Shown here one piece after another: positions 1 through 8,703 of a DNA stretch of 9,920 nucleotides. Within the stretch, counting starts at the first letter, position 1. Each line of letters opens with the position of its first letter. A model generated the notes under the pieces. That model was not told where the DNA came from and made no database searches. It saw only the letters and a program-made list of their open reading frames with translations. The position numbers and the translations under genes were made by a program. This stretch comes from a virus (Duplodnaviria; Heunggongvirae; Uroviricota; Caudoviricetes): the IMG/VR virus record IMGVR_UViG_2671180283_000021; one strand, given 5' to 3'.

Positions 1-24
1 GTAAGCGTCAACGGAGCACCGTAT
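1..24. repeat. IS66 terminal inverted repeat (end proximal to tnpC)
   Basis: GTAAGCGTCAACGGAGCACCGTAT pairs as an imperfect inverted repeat with 2509..2532. Confidence 0.7.
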
Positions 25-30
25 TGACGC

Positions 31-1644
31 TTATTTATTGGTGAGTACTACGTTCCATGGCAGGAGTTCATCAACTCGGTTGGAAGGCCATTCCGGCAGT
101 ACGCTCAGGATATGGCGCAGATACGCTTCCGGATCGATACCGTTCAGACGGCAGGTGCCGATCAGCCCGTACAACAGTGCTCCACGCTCGCCGCCGTGAT
201 CGCTGCCAAAGAACATAAAGTTTTTCTTTCCGAGACAGACTGCACGAAGCGCTCTTTCCGCAGCATTATTATCCGCCTCCGCCAGACCGTCATCACTGTA
301 ATAACAGAGGGCATCCCACTGATTCAGTACATAGCTGAACGCTTCGCCCAGTCTGGATTTTTTCGACAGCGTACCATTCTTCTCCACCATCCATTCATGC
401 AGCGACGTCAGTAACACTTTGCTTCGCTGCTGCCTGACGGCAAGACGCTCTAACTCCGGTAATCCCCGTATTTCATCCTCGATGGCGTACAGTTCACTGA
501 TTCGCTTCAGGGCTTCTTCTGCCGTCGCACTTTTGCTGCTGATGTATACATCGTGGATTTTTCGCCGGGCATGGGCCCAGCACGCAACTTCTGTCAGTGC
601 ACCACCTTCACGTTCTGCACTGAACAACCTGTCGTAACCTGTGAACGCATCCGCCTGCAGGATACCCCGGAAGGGGCGGAGGTGTTGCTCCGGGTGTTTC
701 CCCTGCCGGTTCGGCGAGTACGCGAACCAGACCGCTGGAGGAGATGACGAACCCACATTGCGATCATCCCGGACATACGTCCAGATACGCCCTGTTTTCG
801 CCTTTTTCTGACCCGGTGCCAGTACCTTTACCGGTGTGTCATCAGTGTGAACCTTGCGGGTGTTCATTACATAACGGTACAGGGCATCATTCACCGGTGT
901 CATTAACTGGCAGCACGCGTCAACCCAGTTGGAGAGTAAGGCCCGGCTCAGTTCGACACCCTGGCGGGCAAAGATTTCACTCTGACGATACAGTGGCAGA
1001 TGTTCGCAGTATTTTCCCGTTAACACGCGGGCAAGTAATCCGGGGCCCGCGATACCACGCTCTATCGGGCGGGACGGCGCCGGTGCTTCAACAATACAGT
1101 CACATTTTGTACAGGCTTTTTTTACCCGTTCTGTGCGGATCACTTTCAGGGCACTGCTCACCAGTTCCAGCTGTTCAGCGCTGACTTCCCCCAGATAATC
1201 CAGCTCACCGCCACACTCCGGGCAACAGCTTTCTTCTGGCTCCAGGCGGTGTATTTCACGGGGAAGGTGTGCCGGTAACGGACGACGATGGCGCGACTGT
1301 CGCAACTGGCGGGGAACCTGAGGATCGTCTTCCCGCCCACTGTAACGATCGCTGTCCTGTTCACGTTGTTTCAGCAGAGCCTCAGCCAGTTCAACTTCAC
1401 GACGCAGTTTTTCAGAACGGGTACCGAACAGCATCCGGCGCAGTTTTTCTATCTGAGCCCGCAGATGTTCTATTTCCCGTTCATCTTCTTCGATCTTTTC
1501 TTCGGCACGTGTCAGTGCAGAGCGCAGGAAGGCTTCCGTCTCTTCAACCAGACTCAGTTGCTGGTCTTTCTGACGGAGGGCTTCAGCCTGCTCAGAGAGC
1601 AACCTTTCCAGCTCTGCGATGCGAATGAGGTATTTCTGACTCAT
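31..1644 (-). CDS. tnpC: IS66-family transposase TnpC (ORF3, DDE transposase with zinc-finger motifs)
   Basis: 537 aa. N-terminal coiled-coil/leucine-zipper-like region (LRAQIEKLRRMLFGTRSEKL), CxxC...CxxC motifs (CCPECGG, CTKCDC), and length and organisation characteristic of IS66 TnpC. Confidence 0.9.
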   Translation of the reverse strand: MSQKYLIRIAELERLLSEQAEALRQKDQQLSLVEETEAFLRSALTRAEEKIEEDEREIEHLRAQIEKLRRMLFGTRSEKLRREVELAEALLKQREQDSDRYSGREDDPQVPRQLRQSRHRRPLPAHLPREIHRLEPEESCCPECGGELDYLGEVSAEQLELVSSALKVIRTERVKKACTKCDCIVEAPAPSRPIERGIAGPGLLARVLTGKYCEHLPLYRQSEIFARQGVELSRALLSNWVDACCQLMTPVNDALYRYVMNTRKVHTDDTPVKVLAPGQKKAKTGRIWTYVRDDRNVGSSSPPAVWFAYSPNRQGKHPEQHLRPFRGILQADAFTGYDRLFSAEREGGALTEVACWAHARRKIHDVYISSKSATAEEALKRISELYAIEDEIRGLPELERLAVRQQRSKVLLTSLHEWMVEKNGTLSKKSRLGEAFSYVLNQWDALCYYSDDGLAEADNNAAERALRAVCLGKKNFMFFGSDHGGERGALLYGLIGTCRLNGIDPEAYLRHILSVLPEWPSNRVDELLPWNVVLTNK

Positions 1645-1674
1645 GACCGTTTTTATAATGCGGTCAGGAGTTTT

Positions 1675-2025
1675 TTACAACATTGTCAGTGAGTTACGGC
1701 TGGATGTTTTTGGCTGACGCCAGTCCAGCTTATCGAGGAGCATTGCCAGTTGCGAGCGGGTAATGGATACCTTGCCGTCACGTACCGCAGGCCAGATAAA
1801 CTGGCCTTCCTCCAGGCGTTTGGTGAACAGGCACAGACCATCAGCATCAGCCCAAAGAATTTTGACGGTGTCACCCCGTCGGCCACGGAAGATAAACAGG
1901 TGACCGGAGAAGGGATTATCATTCAGCACATGTTGTACCTGTTCTCCCAGTCCGTTGAAGGATTTACGCATATCGGTAACGCCGGCAACGAGCCAGATAC
2001 GGGTACCTGATGGGAGTGAGATCAT
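1675..2025 (-). CDS. tnpB: IS66-family accessory protein TnpB (ORF2)
   Basis: 116 aa, with the characteristic small IS66 Orf2 sequence (WLVAGVTDMRKSFNGL...ILWADADGLCLFTKRLE). Sits between tnpA and tnpC, and its start overlaps the tnpA stop. Confidence 0.9.
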   Translation of the reverse strand: MISLPSGTRIWLVAGVTDMRKSFNGLGEQVQHVLNDNPFSGHLFIFRGRRGDTVKILWADADGLCLFTKRLEEGQFIWPAVRDGKVSITRSQLAMLLDKLDWRQPKTSSRNSLTML

Positions 2026-2447
2026 CTTCCCCTCCCGGTCAGTTCACGGATCAACACTGTGAGCAGCTCTGGCGATGGATTTTCCAGCGTCATGTTACCG
2101 TGACGGAATTCCACCTTGCAGGAACTGGCACTGACTCTGGTCTGAGTGGAAGTGGATAAAGACGGCGCAATGGCCGCCACAGGTTCTTTCTGCTCATCCG
2201 GCGTTATTTCTACAGGTAATAATTCAACGCCAGTGTCAGAAGAGGTCGTTACCGGAAGACGCCGCGAAACACGCCCTTCGTTCTGCCAGAGCCTGAGCCA
2301 TTTGAAAATAACATTATCATTGACGCCATTTTCACGTGCAATCTGTGCAACACAAGCTCCAGGTTGTGATGCCAGTTCCACCATACGAAGTTTGAATTCA
2401 TTCGAATAGTTTTTACGAGGTTCTTTTCGCCAGTCCTGTAATTCCAT
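2022..2447 (-). CDS. tnpA: IS66-family TnpA (ORF1, HTH DNA-binding protein)
   Basis: 141 aa, with an N-terminal HTH-like segment (YSNEFKLRMVELASQPGACVAQIARENGVNDNVIFKW). First gene of the IS66 three-ORF module. Confidence 0.85.
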   Translation of the reverse strand: MELQDWRKEPRKNYSNEFKLRMVELASQPGACVAQIARENGVNDNVIFKWLRLWQNEGRVSRRLPVTTSSDTGVELLPVEITPDEQKEPVAAIAPSLSTSTQTRVSASSCKVEFRHGNMTLENPSPELLTVLIRELTGRGR

Positions 2448-2508
2448 ACTTAGATGTCCGTCTATATCAGATGGGCGTCTAAGTTACCAATTCTCGTCTG
2501 ATGGCTAC

Positions 2509-2532
2509 ATACGGCGGTCAGTTTACGCTTAC
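2509..2532. repeat. IS66 terminal inverted repeat (end proximal to tnpA)
   Basis: The reverse complement of ATACGGCGGTCAGTTTACGCTTAC matches window positions 1..24 at about 20 of 24 positions. It lies 85 nt upstream of the tnpA start, which is typical for IS66. Confidence 0.7.
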
Positions 2533-2783: not shown

Positions 2784-2811
2784 GGAAAAAACAAAACCCG
2801 CGAAGCGGGTT
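2784..2811 (-). terminator. Rho-independent terminator downstream of the R-M operon
   Basis: GC-rich hairpin AACCCGC-GAA-GCGGGTT (2795..2811). On the minus strand it is followed by TTGTTTTTTCC, the reverse complement of 2784..2794. It lies 73 nt downstream of the endonuclease stop. Confidence 0.6.
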
Positions 2812-2883
2812 AGTAAAAATGTACTGAAGTCAATGACGTGCCATCACAGTTAAAATATGACAGACTCTATTTACGTAGAGATG

Positions 2884-3762
2884 TCAGACTGCAAGATCCA
2901 AGGGAAGATCAGAAATATCCTTTAATCTTTTACCATTAACCATCACGGAAAGCATGTCAGCTGCATCGCTGAGCCCCAGTATTTCAACTGCTGATATAAG
3001 TTCATAAAGCGCAAAATGATACACGCAATCTATATCACCAGTACCAAGAGCAATAGACGCCAGACGACTTGGAGTAGGCTCAGCAGTAACAACCATTACA
3101 TGAGGGAGATTTCCCTTACGGTTGCGAATAAGATTTAATGCCTCAGAACGAGCATTCTGGGCCCGGTCGCTTCTTATTGTCCATTTGCAGGAAATACTTG
3201 CGTGTAATATTGGTTTCCCACCATTCGAACTCCTGAGAGCTGACATGCGGGTAACAGAATCATCCACCAGTAATTCAGGACTGTTGATAACTTGATCACA
3301 TTCAGGTTCTCTTTCAACAATAATATCTGGTGAAATCGTATAATCACTCCCCAGTGCAGCAGCTAGCTGAGGATTACTTTTTGCAGCACTATCCAATGCT
3401 ATAAGATGGGCATATTGTTCATATTTAGCTATCTCTAATCTGTTTCTACCAGAAACCTGATGTACATTCCATTTTCCAGGGCGTAAGTGGCTGAGTTTAA
3501 AAAAGGTTTTTTCTATAAACTCTGCGCAGATACTCTCAAACTGATTACCAGATGTTTGCCCTGCAACACGTTCACCAATCGTTTCAGCCTGCAAGAAGCG
3601 AGCAATTTCTCTTGCTATAGCTTTACTGTTTTTGTTACTGCTATCTGCGTTACTAACAACTCCGGCAGTATTAATTGTGAGCGTATTCAGTAACAATTGG
3701 GCATGAAACTCCTTTCTGGCTTCAGCAAAACCAACTATGCTGTCAACCAAATCTCCATTCAT
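2884..3762 (-). CDS. Putative type II restriction endonuclease (PD-(D/E)xK fold), partner of the adjacent C5-methyltransferase
   Basis: Lies immediately downstream of the methyltransferase. The ATG at 3762 is 13 nt after the methyltransferase stop and is preceded by AGGAAA. Candidate catalytic motifs are SPDIIVERE and SCK, with a Glu 14 residues after the Lys, a spacing I recall from the Cfr10I/NgoMIV-like family. The supplied ORF extends to 3897 but that portion overlaps the methyltransferase by 122 nt. Confidence 0.6.
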   Translation of the reverse strand: MNGDLVDSIVGFAEARKEFHAQLLLNTLTINTAGVVSNADSSNKNSKAIAREIARFLQAETIGERVAGQTSGNQFESICAEFIEKTFFKLSHLRPGKWNVHQVSGRNRLEIAKYEQYAHLIALDSAAKSNPQLAAALGSDYTISPDIIVEREPECDQVINSPELLVDDSVTRMSALRSSNGGKPILHASISCKWTIRSDRAQNARSEALNLIRNRKGNLPHVMVVTAEPTPSRLASIALGTGDIDCVYHFALYELISAVEILGLSDAADMLSVMVNGKRLKDISDLPLDLAV

Positions 3763-3775
3763 TTCTGGATTTCCT

Positions 3776-4900
3776 TCAGGCTGCTTGACTATTCTTACTG
3801 ATGTTATTCTTATACCGTCCCTGCAAAACTCCATACACATATTGTGCGATTTTTGCTGCAAATAGCGGTGGAACAGCATTCCCGATCTGCTTTGCAATCT
3901 CAGTTTTTGAACCGGTAAAAATGAAATTATCAGGAAAAGACATTAATCTCGCTGCCTCACGATGAGTTATTGGCCGATCCTCTTCCGGATGTAAATATCG
4001 CCCTTTCTCCGGTTTGAAAAACTCAGTACGAATCGTTACTGAAGGTCTGTCCCACCACAGACGTCCAAACAAATCGGTCCCTCCAGATTTCTTTTTTAGC
4101 CAGCACGCCGGGGTTATATCAGGTCTTTTTTTCTGTAAATCGAAACGGTTACCTCCTGGTGGAACCGCTTTATATCGCTCCAGAGAAACAGGTGTGGGAT
4201 TACGCCCAAAATGTAAGTTCAGCGGAGGAAGTTCATTACGAATATCAGTTCCAACAGGAGCAGGTAAGTCACCAATTGCATCACGCGTACAGACCCATTC
4301 AGGCAAAGCGACATCCTTATCAGGGGAACGATGCGTTGGTGCTGGCGGGAACGCCGGAATACTATGCACATCGAAGAGTTCTCGTTTGATACCGATTGCT
4401 ATCGTTCGTTTTCTTGTCTGAGGTACTCCATAGTCAGCAGTATTCAACACCATTGGATTAAGCAGAATAAAGCCCATGGATTTCGCTCTAAACGTAATGT
4501 CCGCAAACTCATCGCTTATCAGCAATCCGGGGACATTTTCCATGACGAACATACAAGCCCTTGAACGCTCAATGACATCCATATAAGGCTCCCACAATGC
4601 TCTTCGGTGATCACCATAACGATTCTTATTCAATAAACTGAATCCCTGACACGGGGGGCCACCTATGACCACATCAGCCTCAGGAACAGTATTGCTGGAT
4701 GCCCACTCCTCAATATTTGCCTGAACTCCATGCAAACCAAAATTGGCATTGTAGGTATTTATAGCTGCAGCATTATTATCAATAGCAAGGATACTTTCAA
4801 AGTAGTCAGACATCTCTCCATGAAGAAAACCATAAGATAATCCACCTGCCCCACAAAAGAGGTCTATCACTCTGAATTTATTTAATTCTTTCATCCGCAT
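3776..4900 (-). CDS. DNA (cytosine-5)-methyltransferase
   Basis: 374 aa with canonical C5-MTase motifs: motif I FCGAGGLSYGF, motif IV GGPPCQGFS, motif VI ENVPGL, motif X QIGNAVPP. RBS GAGG lies 7 nt upstream of the ATG at 4900. Confidence 0.92.
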   Translation of the reverse strand: MRMKELNKFRVIDLFCGAGGLSYGFLHGEMSDYFESILAIDNNAAAINTYNANFGLHGVQANIEEWASSNTVPEADVVIGGPPCQGFSLLNKNRYGDHRRALWEPYMDVIERSRACMFVMENVPGLLISDEFADITFRAKSMGFILLNPMVLNTADYGVPQTRKRTIAIGIKRELFDVHSIPAFPPAPTHRSPDKDVALPEWVCTRDAIGDLPAPVGTDIRNELPPLNLHFGRNPTPVSLERYKAVPPGGNRFDLQKKRPDITPACWLKKKSGGTDLFGRLWWDRPSVTIRTEFFKPEKGRYLHPEEDRPITHREAARLMSFPDNFIFTGSKTEIAKQIGNAVPPLFAAKIAQYVYGVLQGRYKNNISKNSQAA

Positions 4901-4983
4901 CCATATGCCTCAGATTAATGTTGAGCGTCTTACAGGACGCGTAATGTTAACTGGGGCTTTCTCTATCTGCCTTTTGGTGTTCA

Positions 4984-5008
4984 TGCCTGAGGCAGACAGC
5001 CTCAGGCA
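4984..5008. other. Perfect 9-bp-stem hairpin (TGCCTGAGG-N7-CCTCAGGCA) in the QueH/methyltransferase intergenic region
   Basis: Inverted repeat read directly from the sequence, with no adjacent U-tract on either strand. Possibly a weak terminator for the QueH-like gene or a regulatory structure. Confidence 0.35.
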
Positions 5009-5078
5009 CCCGCAGCAATTCTACTTAACTCACGTCACCTCGCCAATATGAAATCAATCAGAAAGGTGATCCATAAAA

Positions 5079-5765
5079 TCACTCCTTCTCTTCTTTTCCG
5101 TAGTGGAGTTGGCCAATTTTGATAAGAGGGCGTCCCTGAGATTTGCGGTGTAGATTGGTATCGCGCAGAGAATACACACAGCCACAATATTCCTGCTGAT
5201 AGAATTTTTCGCGCTTGCTGATTTCAATCATACGGGACGAGCCGCCCTGCTTGCGCCAGTTATAATCCCAGTACACCATACCCGGATAATGCGCAACAGC
5301 TCGCCGCCCACACTCGTTAATCTGCTGCATATTTTTCCAGCGTGAAATGCCCAGTGAACTGCTGATCACACTGAAACCATTTTCAGCAGCGTACAACGCT
5401 GTCCGCTCAAAACGCATGTCAAAACACATGGTACAACGGATCCCCCTCTCAGGCTCCCATTCCATTCCTTTGGCACGTTCAAACCAGTTGTCGGTGTCGT
5501 AATCAGCATCGATAAACGGCACGCCGTGTTGTTCAGCAAAGCGAATATTTTCATCCTTACGAATTAAATACTCTTTCTGAGGATGAATGTTCGGGTTGTA
5601 GAAAAAGATGGTGTAGTCGATTCCCGAGGCCTGAAGCGCCTCCATCACTTCACCGGAACATGGAGCACAGCAAGAGTGCAGTAGTAGTTTGTTTGCCCCG
5701 TTTGGGAGCTCCAATTTAGGCCGTTTGAAATCAGCAATAGTCATAAATATTTTTATTGGGGTCAT
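5079..5765 (-). CDS. queH: QueH-like protein (DUF208 family; epoxyqueuosine reductase QueH homolog)
   Basis: 228 aa. N-terminal motif [11 protein letters not shown] plus further conserved Cys (RCTMCF, EYCGCVY), consistent with the Fe-S cluster ligands of DUF208/QueH as I recall them. No clear SD at either candidate start (5765 or 5744). Confidence 0.6.
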
Positions 5766-5918: not shown

Positions 5919-6344
5919 CTAGTAACGTCTAAAATACCTAACATTTCCTTGATAAAATGCCAGTACACGCTGCATAGCTTCGCTCTTCCGGCACTCGCGA
6001 CAGATTATGTTTAGGCGCCTGTCGTAGCGGCGTATTTCGCCGTCTGGTAATAGCCAGATAAGGTCCGGATCAACCACAGATGGTTTCTTCAGCTTTGCCC
6101 TTGAGAGTTTTTTGCGGGCGTTTTGCCAGTCCTTGCGCGCCTGCTCAGACGGGAATACTCCGTAACCGGAATTGTAAACATCACCACTGGCGGCCAGCTC
6201 CATGCATAAACGACCGACAGACGCATGACTGACACCAATTTCATCCGATAACTGCCGAATCGTGCCTCGTCCGTTAAGGCGTACGAATTCCACGATCAGC
6301 CCTTTAATTTTTTCCCGCTCTTCTTGTGTAAAAACTTTTGCCAC
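5919..6344 (-). CDS. Hypothetical protein with N-terminal winged-helix/HTH-like segment and basic C-terminus
   Basis: 141 aa with a GTG start at 6344 preceded by a strong SD (CAGGAGGG, 4-nt spacer). HTH-like segment GTIRQLSDEIGVSHASVGRLCMELAASGDV. C-terminal CRECRK and basic residues. No family recognised. Confidence 0.45.
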   Translation of the reverse strand: MAKVFTQEEREKIKGLIVEFVRLNGRGTIRQLSDEIGVSHASVGRLCMELAASGDVYNSGYGVFPSEQARKDWQNARKKLSRAKLKKPSVVDPDLIWLLPDGEIRRYDRRLNIICRECRKSEAMQRVLAFYQGNVRYFRRY

Positions 6345-6384: not shown

Positions 6385-7347
6385 TTACCCCCTGAAGCCC
6401 GGCGGAATTTCAGTGTCCGGTTCAGAAATGTGATTCACGCAACGCTGCGCAGGTGAACGCCCCAGGCGGATAACCAGTTCATCCCATTTTTCCCGGAGTT
6501 TTGCCGGACTCATGATGTTTTTTACCCAGAACGAATCCCGCTGGAGACGCCCAAACATTTCACAAATTTGTCTGTGAGTTCTGCCATCCAGCATCCGCAT
6601 TGTGCGAACGTCATTGGCCCATGCTGTCCAGTTGGGTTCTTTCGGTCTAGTGATCTCGCCATCATCGCTGGCCGCCTGCTCGTAAAGACTCACGATTCGT
6701 CCCCAGATCCACTGTGCGCACACCAAATCTTCCTGACTTCCCCACTGGCGTTTTTTCGCACTGAACACAACCGCGTCAGGGTGTCGGGTTAAAAAATCCT
6801 GTTCAGCCATCTGCGGGTCCGGTTGCGAAGCGTCCGGACAAGAAGATCTTTTATCTGACGGATCAGGTTTTAATACTGACGGATCGGGGTCAATCATCGC
6901 CCCCCTAATCGGCAGTTTTTTATCAACAGTTGATCCATCAAAATTTAACGGGTCAACCGTTGAGGGGTCAATATTTGACGGGTCAACTGTTAACGGGTCA
7001 TTTTTTGCCGGGCTAATTTTTCTTTTCGGTTTATATGACTCACGCGCCGCCGCCGCAGCTGCTTCGAGTTTTTCCACATTAAGCCGATAGATATTGCTTA
7101 CATTACGCCCACCGACCTTACGCTCTTCCTTCGTCAGCCAGCCCTCTTTCGCCAGTTCTGCAATAGCCGATTTCACTGTGGATTCACTTCTTGCACCGAT
7201 CTGACGCCGGATAGTTTCAATGGCAGGCCATGACACGCCCTCGTCATTGCTGTAGTCTGCAAGACGGGCCATAACCGCCACCCTGGATAAGATCATGCCG
7301 GTGAAGGCGCACCCTTCCCAGACAAGACCATGAAGCTTGCTGCTCAT
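6385..7347 (-). CDS. Phage replication initiation protein: N-terminal HTH (HTH_36-like), pentapeptide-repeat linker, C-terminal DnaT-like domain
   Basis: Preferred start is the ATG at 7347, preceded by GGGGG; the supplied ORF begins at a GTG at 7362. The N-terminus (VSWPAIETIRRQIGARSESTVKSAIAELAKEGWLTKEE) resembles the replication-initiator wHTH. The C-terminus (...VNHISEPDTEIPPGFRG) closely matches what I recall of the E. coli DnaT C-terminus (...SEPDSQIPPGFRG). Internal xxVDP repeats are encoded by the iterons. Confidence 0.7.
   Translation of the reverse strand: MSSKLHGLVWEGCAFTGMILSRVAVMARLADYSNDEGVSWPAIETIRRQIGARSESTVKSAIAELAKEGWLTKEERKVGGRNVSNIYRLNVEKLEAAAAAARESYKPKRKISPAKNDPLTVDPSNIDPSTVDPLNFDGSTVDKKLPIRGAMIDPDPSVLKPDPSDKRSSCPDASQPDPQMAEQDFLTRHPDAVVFSAKKRQWGSQEDLVCAQWIWGRIVSLYEQAASDDGEITRPKEPNWTAWANDVRTMRMLDGRTHRQICEMFGRLQRDSFWVKNIMSPAKLREKWDELVIRLGRSPAQRCVNHISEPDTEIPPGFRG
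6855..7040. repeat. Putative origin of replication inside the rep gene: direct repeats, four tandem 15-bp iterons and an AT-rich tract
   Basis: CTGACGGATC occurs twice (6855..6864 and 6876..6885). Four tandem 15-bp units run from 6947 to 7006 (AACGGGTCAACCGTT, GAGGGGTCAATATTT, GACGGGTCAACTGTT, AACGGGTCATTTTTT), with the core (C/G)GGGTCA at a 15-bp period. They are followed by an AT-rich stretch (TTTTTTGCCGGGCTAATTTTTCTTTTCGGTTTATAT). The layout resembles lambda ori within gene O. Confidence 0.6.
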
Positions 7348-7369
7348 AAAACCCCCGAACACCGTGCTT

Positions 7370-7795
7370 TTAGTGCATCACCACAGCATTCCCTGCCGGG
7401 CCGCCGCGATTCATCTGGTCATACAAAACAACCGCTGACGCAACAAAATCATCGACATCCTTCACCAGCCGATCCCTCCGTTCGACGATCTCACGGTAAT
7501 ATTCAGAACTGTGGCTGCGCATACGGGCCACCAGCAAAGGCGGCATCGCCTTTTCGATCGCCGGTAACAGAGCCTGCATTTTTTCAACAGCATCAGGGGT
7601 GTCTTTATCCAGCCAACGGAAAATTTTCTGGGTATTACGGGCCAGGGCTTCCGGATGGCTGTCGTCGTACAGTTCAGGGAACGTCATCCCCAGTTCGAAA
7701 TAAGTCCGGGCTATTTCAGCTGCAGGAACTTTCTCACCATCAGGGTATGCCCAGGCATTCATCGCCATGCGGATGTGCTCATGTTTGATTTTCAT
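7370..7795 (-). CDS. ydaT: YdaT-like protein (Rac prophage YdaT family; CII-like regulator, historically annotated as putative toxin)
   Basis: 141 aa with N-terminus MKIKHEHI, matching my recollection of E. coli K-12 YdaT. Lies immediately downstream of the YdaS-like gene, overlapping it by 17 nt. Confidence 0.75.
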   Translation of the reverse strand: MKIKHEHIRMAMNAWAYPDGEKVPAAEIARTYFELGMTFPELYDDSHPEALARNTQKIFRWLDKDTPDAVEKMQALLPAIEKAMPPLLVARMRSHSSEYYREIVERRDRLVKDVDDFVASAVVLYDQMNRGGPAGNAVVMH

Positions 7796-8102
7796 GAATC
7801 ATTTGCCTCTTGATGCTTCGGGTATGATCGTTTTCGTCATTTGGTTGCTTCATCGACATATTCTGCGAATAACATGACGAGCGTCGTAAGTATGTCCAAT
7901 CAACATCAGGACGAAGTTCTTCACACAGGACACCACCTTTTGTTGCTCGTTCAATCGCAGGACATCTCTCAGCAGGTAACTGACGTACACCTTTGATCCA
8001 TTGATTTACGCTTGGAGGAGATACACCTAAAAGCCTAGCCATTGCTGATTGCCCACCGACAACAGCACAAGCTCGTTTGAATGAATAGTTATCTTTTTTC
8101 AT
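7779..8102 (-). CDS. ydaS: YdaS-like Cro-type HTH regulator
   Basis: Sequence MKKDNYSFKRACAVVGGQSAMARLLGVSPPSVNQWIKGVRQLP is a Cro/CI-type HTH. Preferred start is the ATG at 8102, with GGAG 8 nt upstream; the supplied ORF starts at a GTG at 8123. Divergent from the repressor gene. Confidence 0.8.
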   Translation of the reverse strand: MKKDNYSFKRACAVVGGQSAMARLLGVSPPSVNQWIKGVRQLPAERCPAIERATKGGVLCEELRPDVDWTYLRRSSCYSQNMSMKQPNDENDHTRSIKRQMIHENQT

Positions 8103-8129
8103 CGAATGAACTCCAAAAAACACGCAACA

Positions 8130-8226: not shown

Positions 8227-8703
8227 ATGCTTAGTGGTAAAGACTTAGGCCGAGCGATAGAGCAGGCCATTAACAAAAAAATTGCATCAGGAGCCGTCAA
8301 ATCAAAGGCGGAAATCGCACGTCATTTCAAAGTCCAACCACCATCAATCCATGACTGGATTAAGAAAGGTTCGATAAGTAAAGACAAACTTCCAGAACTA
8401 TGGCGTTTCTTTTCTGATGTGGTTGGTCCAGAGCATTGGGGGCTTAACGAATACCCCATACCAACCCCATCCACTTCAGATACAAAAAGTGAACTTTTAG
8501 ACATAAACAGCCTTTATCAAGCCGCCTCTGATGAAAAAAGAGCAATTGTGGCTTTCATCTTATCTGGAAATGCTACGGAGCCTAGTTGGGTTGATCATGA
8601 CGTTCGCGCCTACATTGCCGCAATGGAAATGAAGGTAGCTAACTATCTGAAAAATCAAGAATCAAAACGGAAAAGCCAGAACATCACCAAGACAGGAACT
8701 TAA
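8227..8703 (+). CDS. racR: RacR-like prophage repressor (XRE/CI-type HTH)
   Basis: 158 aa, with an HTH segment (SKAEIARHFKVQPPSIHDWIKKG). Divergent from the ydaS/ydaT-like genes, with operators on both flanks. Length and synteny match Rac prophage racR; the symbol is assigned by context, not by sequence identity. Confidence 0.7.
   Translation: MLSGKDLGRAIEQAINKKIASGAVKSKAEIARHFKVQPPSIHDWIKKGSISKDKLPELWRFFSDVVGPEHWGLNEYPIPTPSTSDTKSELLDINSLYQAASDEKRAIVAFILSGNATEPSWVDHDVRAYIAAMEMKVANYLKNQESKRKSQNITKTGT

Follow-up and report, generated by a model that had tools for sequence, protein, structure and literature searches.

Two described systems serve for comparison with the locus studied here, a pair of restriction-modification (R-M) genes in a viral stretch of 9,920 nucleotides (nt) from the IMG/VR record IMGVR_UViG_2671180283_000021 (hereafter the window, meaning that whole stretch): the NgoMIV system of Neisseria gonorrhoeae and the hok/sok locus of plasmid R1. 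In the NgoMIV co-crystal, the target is G^CCGGC; the readers of its inner CC:GG pairs are Arg191-Ser192-Asp193-Arg194, located three residues past the catalytic Lys187, and those of its outer G:C pair are Asp34 and Arg227 (PMC6326814). Members of the CCGG superfamily have a common R-(S/x)-D-R reader of CCGG and differ from one another at the outer bases (PMC6326814). In the hok mRNA of R1, pairing between tac and fbi keeps the Shine-Dalgarno (SD) sequence closed; after removal of the 3′ end, tac pairs with the anti-SD sequence and the SD opens (PMC9841398). The SD of mok in this mRNA is a GAGG at about nt 104-107 (PMC9841398). The R1 hok promoter is constitutive and has been described as weak (PMC3874152).

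In the window, a C5-cytosine DNA methyltransferase gene (M) and an NgoMIV-family restriction endonuclease gene (R) occupy the slot of mok and hok. We interpret them as a two-gene Type IIP/IIF-like R-M operon, a prophage ‘moron’ in the early-right region, and assign a probability of about 0.8 to this explanation as a whole. Judged from the sequence, the M-R cassette took the exact place of the part that codes for mok and hok in a prophage hok/sok locus, a type I toxin-antitoxin system; the promoter, a 105 nt leader, the mok ribosome-binding site and the terminator of this locus were kept (Table 1). Both genes are already named in RefSeq (‘DNA cytosine methyltransferase’ and ‘NgoMIV family type II restriction endonuclease’). 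In the literature, we found no report of an R-M system that replaced hok/sok and inherited its expression signals, and nothing relevant on this R-M system or on a GCCGGC methylome in O157.

Replacement of mok and hok by the M-R cassette

The junctions of the cassette were defined by pairwise alignment with the intact-hok site of Escherichia coli IHE3034 (L004; hereafter the hok reference). Reference sites of this kind were retrieved with a chimeric query joining both flanks of the R-M genes. On the 5′ side, homology with the hok site extends through ...AATCTGAGGC (4907), which is the mok SD, and on the 3′ side it restarts at TAACCCGCTTCGCGGGTTTTGTTTTTT (2812), which is the hok terminator. The 5′ junction possibly lies up to 4 nt further in, at 4903, since some hok alleles read GAGGCATAT. 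The same junction was found in six IMG/VR viral contigs (L106, L122, L131, L150, L173 and L186). The replaced 287 bp held mok, hok, most of the hok 3′ untranslated region (UTR), the Sok promoter and fbi. The mok and hok reading frames are not present at the locus, the M-R cassette being in their place.

The flanks of the cassette are common prophage DNA. Intact-hok sites with the order QueH-hokD-hypothetical-DUF968-RusA occur in IHE3034 and other genomes, at least 86 in all. The 170 bp that separate QueH from M are 90-95% identical to sequence present in about 3,900 of a set of 5,426 complete E. coli genomes, and the segment with the flagged elements is 90-98% identical to the hokD/mok leaders there. 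This segment is also found in Rac-like phages, and in Rac-SA53 and HannyBb it is directly followed by annotated mok and hok. In a census of at least 120 IMG/VR contigs with the leader, collected with a search pattern that required the palindrome listed in Table 1, 95 had hok, six had R-M with the identical junction, four had other disruptions and 15 were too short. The leader in front of R-M is identical at 245 of 250 nt to that of the closest hok-bearing loci.

The Rfam model RF01794 (hok/sok leader, ‘sok’) matched positions 5011-4831 of the minus strand with 61 bits against a gathering score of 59 (E 6e-12). The alignment is good only from 5011 to about 4909 (model positions about 1-88), and the intact reference scores 120.5 bits. 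The hok promoter lies 6 nt upstream of RF01794 position 1, and the promoter scan placed it at the same relative position in the hok reference; it is predicted to be the only recognisable promoter ahead of M. The GAGG of the window corresponds to nt 101-104 of the predicted transcript, and in hok loci the alignment places the mok ATG 9 nt past the same GAGG.

The hokD/mok/sok loci of Rac-like and lambdoid prophages, which are homologous to hok/sok of R1, thus occupy the same slot as M-R, from QueH to DUF968-RusA-Q, and have the same promoter, the same first 105 nt of mRNA with the putative tac-stem and the mok SD, and the same terminator. The window differs from them by having no mok, hok, fbi or Sok promoter; it retains a relic of such a locus, has lost the toxin-antitoxin function and is not itself a member of the hok/sok family. 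On the plus strand, the retained leader is a promoterless relic of the Sok RNA body.

Among the conserved parts that were lost is a block, TAGGTTAGCCTCTTACGTGCCGAAAGGCAAGG, of which the opposite strand reads TTGCCT-17-TAACCT; the latter is presumably the Sok promoter, given the homology with the R1 locus. This promoter and the template for about the first 17 nt of Sok were placed in the replaced segment by homology with the R1 system, the promoter also on the basis of PMC3874152. Also lost were the hypervariable 20 nt or so past the SD, which form the template of the Sok 5′ tail. In IHE3034, the 5′ end of the mRNA pairs with fbi (CCUCAACGCACCC), which lies just upstream of the terminator and inside the replaced segment, with a duplex energy of -21.5 kcal/mol. 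No fbi-like complement to the 5′ end was found in the 3′ UTR of the window, where the best duplex reached -11.2 kcal/mol.

The leader showed other variation among hok loci. In loci L077-L196, about 20 nt from the mok SD (GAGGC) through the first mok codons are hypervariable, with at least six allele classes between conserved flanks, a pattern consistent with allele-specific recognition by the Sok 5′ tail among co-resident prophages. The R-M junction is located exactly at the edge of this patch. Three viral contigs (L097 at about 4177, L121 at about 9228 and L145 at about 10387) diverge at the hok start codon, between GCAGGCTAT and TGTTAACACC..., and the hok locus of L185 diverges slightly earlier than these three. 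At the other end of the locus, an Rfam match to RyhB at 2788-2845 (24 bits against 55, E 0.7) was rejected because it consists of the terminator hairpin only.

The methyltransferase-endonuclease pair and its predicted target

M matched Pfam PF00145 DNA_methylase (4.2e-54; 184.6 bits, cutoff 22) and TIGR00675 dcm (5e-45; 154.5 bits, cutoff 100.65), as well as the PADLOC model MTase_II. Motifs I (FCGAGG, F15), IV (PPCQ, 82), VI (ENV, 121), VIII (QTRKR, 161), IX (REAARLMSFP, 314) and X (GNAVPP, 340) were read from the sequence in canonical order, so that the C5-methyltransferase motifs are indeed as unambiguous as a preliminary description of this DNA had stated. RefSeq (WP_001427299.1) starts M two codons later, at ATG 4894, for a length of 372 amino acids (aa), and this is the start that lines up with the Klebsiella homologue. 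The best PADLOC match of M, to DruM of the Druantia system (2e-90), was rejected as generic C5-methyltransferase similarity, with no Druantia genes nearby. The lineage of M (66-81% identity) is widespread in Gammaproteobacteria, and the best 120 homologues, searched for informative names, were all called by the generic ‘DNA cytosine methyltransferase’. Two further signals at the 5′ part of M, a sigma-70-like match TTGAAA-17-AATAAT (10/12) at 4772-4800 of the minus strand and an 8-codon out-of-frame open reading frame (ORF) overlapping the M start on the same strand (ATG 4904 ... TAA 4878), are probably fortuitous.

The start of R, which had been left uncertain, could be settled. A mechanical reading gives an ORF at 2884-3897 that begins with a TTG inside M. 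Of this longer form, the NgoMIV_restric model covers residues 64-337 only, and the alignment with the NgoMIV crystal sequence begins at residue 12 of the form starting at ATG 3762. Homologues of R in other genomes, from many phyla, are 286-296 aa long, and their starts fall no more than a few residues from ATG 3762; this codon is preceded by an AAGGA ribosome-binding site 9 nt upstream, and the RefSeq annotation of R is 879 nt long. Since these four lines agree, ATG 3762 was taken as the start and TTG 3897 was ruled out. R then starts 14 nt after the M stop (13-nt spacer) and the two genes do not overlap. The overlap of the R ribosome-binding site with the M stop suggests translational coupling.

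R is a full-length NgoMIV-type nuclease. It matched Pfam PF09015 NgoMIV_restric over all model positions (1-275 of 275; 9.8e-127, 422 bits, cutoff 23.2) and PADLOC REase_II (8e-126). In a PDB sequence search at E <= 0.01, NgoMIV was the sole match (1FIU; 9.6e-119); the identity is 66% when the full query is counted and about 69% when only the aligned part is. The profile comparison thus assigns both proteins to the expected families, and the nuclease-fold similarity of the downstream ORF is present. Its PD...SxK...E spacing, noticed earlier, is also real and is formed by P145-D146, S191-C-K193 and E207. Across seven homologues, from Neisseria, Halopseudomonas, Klebsiella, Cronobacter, Pantoea and a phage, the residues D40, E76, D146, K193, R197-S-D-R200, E207 and R233 are invariant; their NgoMIV equivalents are D34, E70, D140, K187, R191-R194, E201 and R227. 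The CCGG reader of R, R197-S198-D199-R200, is located three residues beyond K193 as in NgoMIV, and the outer-base readers D40 and R233 are kept. Because the catalytic residues and all the GCCGGC-contact residues of NgoMIV are conserved, the target of R is very probably G^CCGGC. The earlier suggestion of an NgoMIV/Cfr10I-type enzyme with a CCGG-containing target is therefore borne out, and the conserved residues narrow the target to GCCGGC.

A different CCGG-containing site, either RCCGGY as for Cfr10I and Bse634I or a longer or degenerate one, would be compatible with the Cfr10I-like features named in the preliminary description, with the use of one R-(S/x)-D-R reader by superfamily members that differ in their outer bases (PMC6326814) and with an M lineage other than that of M.NgoMIV. 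Cfr10I, Bse634I and SgrAI have an SxK...E active-site variant and the R-x-D-R reader of CCGG, as does R (PMC6326814). However, the outer-base readers of R are of the NgoMIV type for a G:C pair and not the degenerate R:Y readers of these enzymes. The equivalents of Asp34 and Arg227 are conserved in all seven homologues, and NgoMIV, at 65-69% identity, is the only PDB match. We therefore consider another target unlikely and retain GCCGGC.

M and R are adjacent in the same orientation, and their pairing recurs in four further contexts. An M of this lineage lies directly upstream of an NgoMIV_restric gene in Klebsiella michiganensis prophages, on the Cronobacter dublinensis chromosome and in Pantoea ananatis, and a further such pair is found in another, uncultured lambdoid phage just after Q. 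M and R thus appear to be a cognate pair that is stable across independent genomic contexts. In these other Enterobacterales cassettes, M is 78-81% and R is 79-85% identical to the window proteins, with the same order and spacing, and two of the cassettes are likewise Q-proximal in lambdoid prophages. The Klebsiella cassette has about 76% DNA identity in the coding regions only, and its flanks are unrelated; the ends of the cassette could therefore not be derived from this comparison. No hok leader was found by Rfam upstream of the Klebsiella cassette in the two loci scanned. Among the contexts examined, the replacement of hok is confined to the E. coli lineage.

The comparison with the NgoMIV system of N. 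gonorrhoeae (PDB 1FIU/4ABT) gives a different picture for each of the two genes. The nucleases are 65-69% identical over their full length (286 aa in NgoMIV, 292 aa in R) and have the same catalytic residues, R-S-D-R reader and outer-base readers (D34 and R227). As in the window, M precedes R on one strand and there is no controller (C) protein. M.NgoMIV, by contrast, has 312 aa against 374 aa for M, and the two have 22% identity, generic motif matches and only the general C5 fold in common. Since they are not orthologous, the specificity of M.NgoMIV was not transferred to M. Halopseudomonas has an R that is 78% identical to that of the window, and its partner, as in N. gonorrhoeae, is of the 312-337-aa M.NgoMIV type. 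The Neisseria genes abut, with stop and start adjacent, in a chromosomal housekeeping context, whereas those of the window are separated by 13 nt and lie in a prophage with hok signals. Given the stable pairing with R, M should have to protect GCCGGC. It would then methylate a cytosine either in this sequence or in a wider set of sites that contain CCGG.

How the prophage would protect its own DNA can be considered on the same basis. The window has no GCCGGC outside the insertion sequence (IS). The prophage of O157:H7 strain 9000, which carries the same R-M genes, has four GCCGGC sites in 33.6 kb against 9-15 expected. As GGCGCC, ACCGGT and other GC-rich palindromes are equally depleted in it, there is no signal of specific GCCGGC avoidance in this prophage. 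Its GCCGGC sites would be protected by methylation already in the lysogen. On induction, the resistance of hemimethylated daughter DNA would help, as might the promoter-proximal position of M in a unit that would also lie in the path of pR read-through.

The absence of specific avoidance would also fit a system in which R is inactive or decaying and M is effectively an orphan with an epigenetic or anti-restriction role. The activity of R is a prediction, and solitary methyltransferases are frequent in prophages, that of strain 9000 having a second one downstream of Q. Against this, R is full length and its catalytic and DNA-contact residues are all invariant. The R-M genes are 100% identical in 59-60 of the 5,426 complete E. 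coli genomes, without frameshifts; R is tightly coupled to M, and the pairing is kept across genera. An orphan M is therefore quite unlikely, and we retain the reading of M-R as a complete R-M operon.

Predicted expression from the inherited leader

The cassette carries at most 7-13 nt upstream of the M start codon and thus has no promoter of its own. In a lysogen, with pR repressed, the constitutive hok promoter would drive M-R, and the predicted product is a bicistronic mRNA of about 2.2 kb from 5011 to about 2793 that ends at the hok terminator. The architecture of the R1 hok mRNA was taken from PMC9841398 and PMC3874152 and mapped by inference onto the hokD-type leader. By its position and complementarity, the 5′ hairpin of the window would be the tac-stem that hok mRNA forms in its translatable state, with a 3′ arm complementary both to the 5′ end (tac) and to the SD region, the latter with -15.1 kcal/mol. 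With both fbi and Sok missing, this stem would be permanent, with the anti-SD trapped and the mok SD free. The stem is also slightly stronger in the window than in the hok reference (-22.3 against -19.6 kcal/mol), because a U.G pair became C-G. M would be translated constitutively from the free mok SD, which is 7 nt away, and R from its own site overlapping the M stop.

The preliminary description had seen no C-protein gene, and indeed M and R fill 2813-4906 so that no further ORF fits. A C-box operator is not found upstream either, the palindrome there belonging to the hok leader instead. The M-first order would stand in for a C protein by giving the delay that such a protein provides elsewhere. 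By analogy with NgoMIV, R is probably a tetramer that needs two sites, and this requirement, if R has it, would add to the delay. The lysogen would restrict unmodified incoming DNA, and the module would probably also stabilise the prophage by post-segregational killing, which is the same service as that of hok/sok.

Several points weigh against this explanation. Cleavage, methylation, the transcription start and the RNA fold are all predicted from sequence. The Rfam hit is just above its threshold (61 against 59), because half of the model is replaced. A promoter scan for a Sok-like antisense promoter missed that of the hok reference, used as a positive control, and was thus uninformative; the absence of a new antisense promoter is therefore argued from the deletion of the homologous segment and not from the scan. 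Read-through from QueH or pR could also add to transcription. In the minimum free energy fold of the chimeric leader, the SD and both ATGs pair with leader nt 66-90, which could damp the translation of M. The specificity of M is derived from pairing logic only, M not being an orthologue of M.NgoMIV, and a Yersinia homologue of M (77% identity) has an HNH nuclease as its partner and not an NgoMIV-type one.

Two of these points come with observations of their own. At 4892-4946 (minus strand), the first bases of the cassette, GGAUGCGGAUG, include both candidate start codons of M and can form 11 pairs, with one bulge, with leader nt 66-77 (CAUUACGCGUCC). This pairing, which would sequester the SD and start, may be due to chance or may be a translational damper made by the fusion. 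The Yersinia locus is in a P2-like prophage of Yersinia kristensenii (L072, 2472-6092); the HNH protein has 330 aa, and the locus adjoins a PvuRts1I-like/SRA (modified-cytosine-dependent) nuclease gene and a HicB gene. It represents an apparent swap of partners within one M lineage.

The palindrome, the hairpin and the 24-codon ORF upstream of M had been proposed to regulate the R-M genes, as an operator, an attenuator or a leader peptide. All three exist at the positions given, and the lack of a C protein calls for some other control. Moreover, a 1-nt deletion, which all six R-M loci share and none of about 110 hok loci has, and two substitutions in the hairpin region are present only in R-M loci. 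However, this segment also lies in front of hok in thousands of genomes without R-M genes. The palindrome occurs with one loop substitution in the hok-bearing Rac-SA53, HannyBb and IHE3034, and from this comparison it is a hairpin of the conserved hok leader opposite the Sok RNA body and not an R-M operator. The ORF has no ribosome-binding site, begins within the -22 kcal/mol hairpin and has 12 codons in all hok loci; its length of 24 codons is due to the 1-nt deletion private to the R-M lineage. Because the R-M loci are all at least 99% identical, their private substitutions count as one event only, from which selection cannot be deduced. The elements are thus present as described, and their invention as R-M-specific devices is largely refuted; purpose-built control of this kind is very unlikely.

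The leader of the R-M loci differs from the closest hok leaders at five of 250 positions, all private to R-M loci. A U to C change at transcript nt 7 makes the tac-stem perfect, and an A to G change at nt 15 weakens a competing helix with GGCAGAUAG. The remaining changes are the 1-nt deletion, which is in an A-run, and two around the palindrome. These changes could be post-capture tuning or drift, a single lineage having no power to decide.

Down-regulation of the M-R mRNA in trans by Sok RNAs of co-resident hok/sok loci, through translational block or RNase III, is most improbable: about 50 nt of Sok-complementary leader with the SD are kept at 90-98% identity to paralogous loci and carrier genomes hold several such loci (five further leader copies in strain 9000), but about 17-20 nt just past the SD are replaced by unrelated M sequence, this region is hypervariable among hok alleles in keeping with allele-specific recognition, and repression of M but not of R would be self-destructive. 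The replaced region presumably pairs, as in R1, with the single-stranded 5′ tail of Sok that starts binding. We therefore keep to constitutive expression of M-R from the inherited hok signals as the more probable course.

Prophage setting and significance

Family profiles and gene order identify the window as the early-right region of an E. coli lambdoid prophage, with the order cI/cro, CII-like, O-like, Ren-like/DUF977, QueH, M, R, (DUF968, RusA, Q). The segment 2780-5080 matches a prophage of O157:H7 strain 9000 at 100% identity; among the 5,426 complete E. coli genomes, 59 have it with at least 99% identity and 60 cover at least 80% of it. The strain 9000 prophage is a complete lambdoid prophage with int/xis, exo, dicB, replication genes, QueH, M and R, followed by DUF968, RusA, Q, lysis genes, terminase, and head and tail genes. 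This context and the gene content of the window agree with the previous placement of the R-M genes inside a prophage. Within the phage collection, the R-M genes are absent from every record and only the leader gave matches.

Table 1 Features of the window
Feature	Position	Strand	Remarks
Divergent cI-like gene	8227-8703	+	
Repressor-type regulator	7779-8123	-	
CII-like/YdaT gene	7370-7795	-	
O-like replication initiator	6385-7362	-	
DUF977/Ren-like gene	5919-6344	-	
QueH homologue	5079-5765	-	PF02677, 5e-66
hok promoter, TTGGCG-17 nt-TAGAAT	5018-5046	-	Kept; promoter scan
Retained hok mRNA 5′ leader, 105 nt including mok SD	4907-5011	-	Rfam and alignment
5′ hairpin	4985-5007	-	Equated with the tac-stem by position and complementarity; 3′ arm GCCUCAGGC is the anti-SD
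24-codon ORF	4984-4913	-	ATG 4984 inside the putative tac-stem; no ribosome-binding site
Palindrome GCGTC-N6-GACGC	4925-4940	-	Conserved hairpin of hok leader / Sok body
mok Shine-Dalgarno GAGG	4908-4911	-	7 nt upstream of ATG 4900, 13 nt upstream of ATG 4894
M-R cassette, 2,094 bp	2813..4906	-	Replaces 287 bp of the prophage hokD locus
C5-cytosine DNA methyltransferase M	3776-4900	-	374 aa from ATG 4900
R ribosome-binding site GAAGGAA	3771-3777	-	Overlaps M stop TGA (3776-3778)
NgoMIV-family Type II restriction endonuclease R	2884-3762	-	292 aa; predicted target G^CCGGC
Cassette 3′ untranslated segment, 71 nt	2813-2883	-	No counterpart in hok loci or in the Klebsiella cassette
hok intrinsic terminator, AACCCGCTTCGCGGGTT + T run	2786-2811	-	Terminator scan of window and hok reference; alignment
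IS66-family element, complete	1-2529		Ends GTAAGCG... / ...CGCTTAC; inverted repeats GTAAGCGTCAACGG... and ...GTTTACGCTTAC
tnpA of IS66	2022-2447	-	
tnpB of IS66	1675-2025	-	
tnpC of IS66	31-1644	-	

The left end of the IS66 element is the exact start of the window. The element breaks a small conserved ORF located 3′ of the hok terminator, which has 90 aa in strain 9000, and this insertion was reproduced in none of the genomes of the complete E. coli set. On the other side of the slot, QueH is a fixed neighbour directly upstream of hok in very many E. coli prophages. Its protein is identical in IHE3034 and strain 9000, and the corresponding PHROG family (phrog_3217) is labelled ‘unknown function’. 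Between Q and the lysis genes, the strain 9000 prophage (L001) has an Rfam STnc100 small RNA at 15493-15693 (148 bits). Beside it lies the second, unrelated ‘DNA-methyltransferase’ gene (15773-16831), downstream of Q, which brings the total of this prophage to two methyltransferases.

In functional terms, M-R took the place of hok/sok as one addiction module for another, at a prophage slot that stayed fixed, and this exchange is of modest but genuine interest. The newcomer is a module for addiction and defence that is based on enzymes; it displaced, base for base, one that is based on RNA and took over the promoter, leader, ribosome-binding site and terminator of the latter. These inherited signals answer the question of how a cassette with neither a C protein nor its own promoter gets expressed from a repressed prophage. 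The locus illustrates cleanly how morons are exchanged in nature at one and the same slot. It also cautions that a structured, ‘regulatory-looking’ stretch ahead of a gene may be the fossil of a previous tenant.

A stronger claim would be that the R-M operon is a functional graft on the hok/sok chassis, wholly dependent on it for transcription, 5′ structure, M start and termination, with a leader retuned after capture to lock the translatable fold and with possible cross-talk from the Sok of sister prophages. We regard this claim as doubtful. If it were true, hok/sok loci would be a reusable landing pad and expression cassette for the defence genes of lambdoid phages.

Taken by itself, the R-M system is routine. 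With it, a subset of E. coli, including the O157:H7 lineage of strain 9000 from cattle and humans in the UK, gains a prophage-borne restriction barrier that is predicted to be specific for GCCGGC. The system is therefore relevant to phage susceptibility, to gene flow and to the reading of 5-methylcytosine methylomes of carrier strains.

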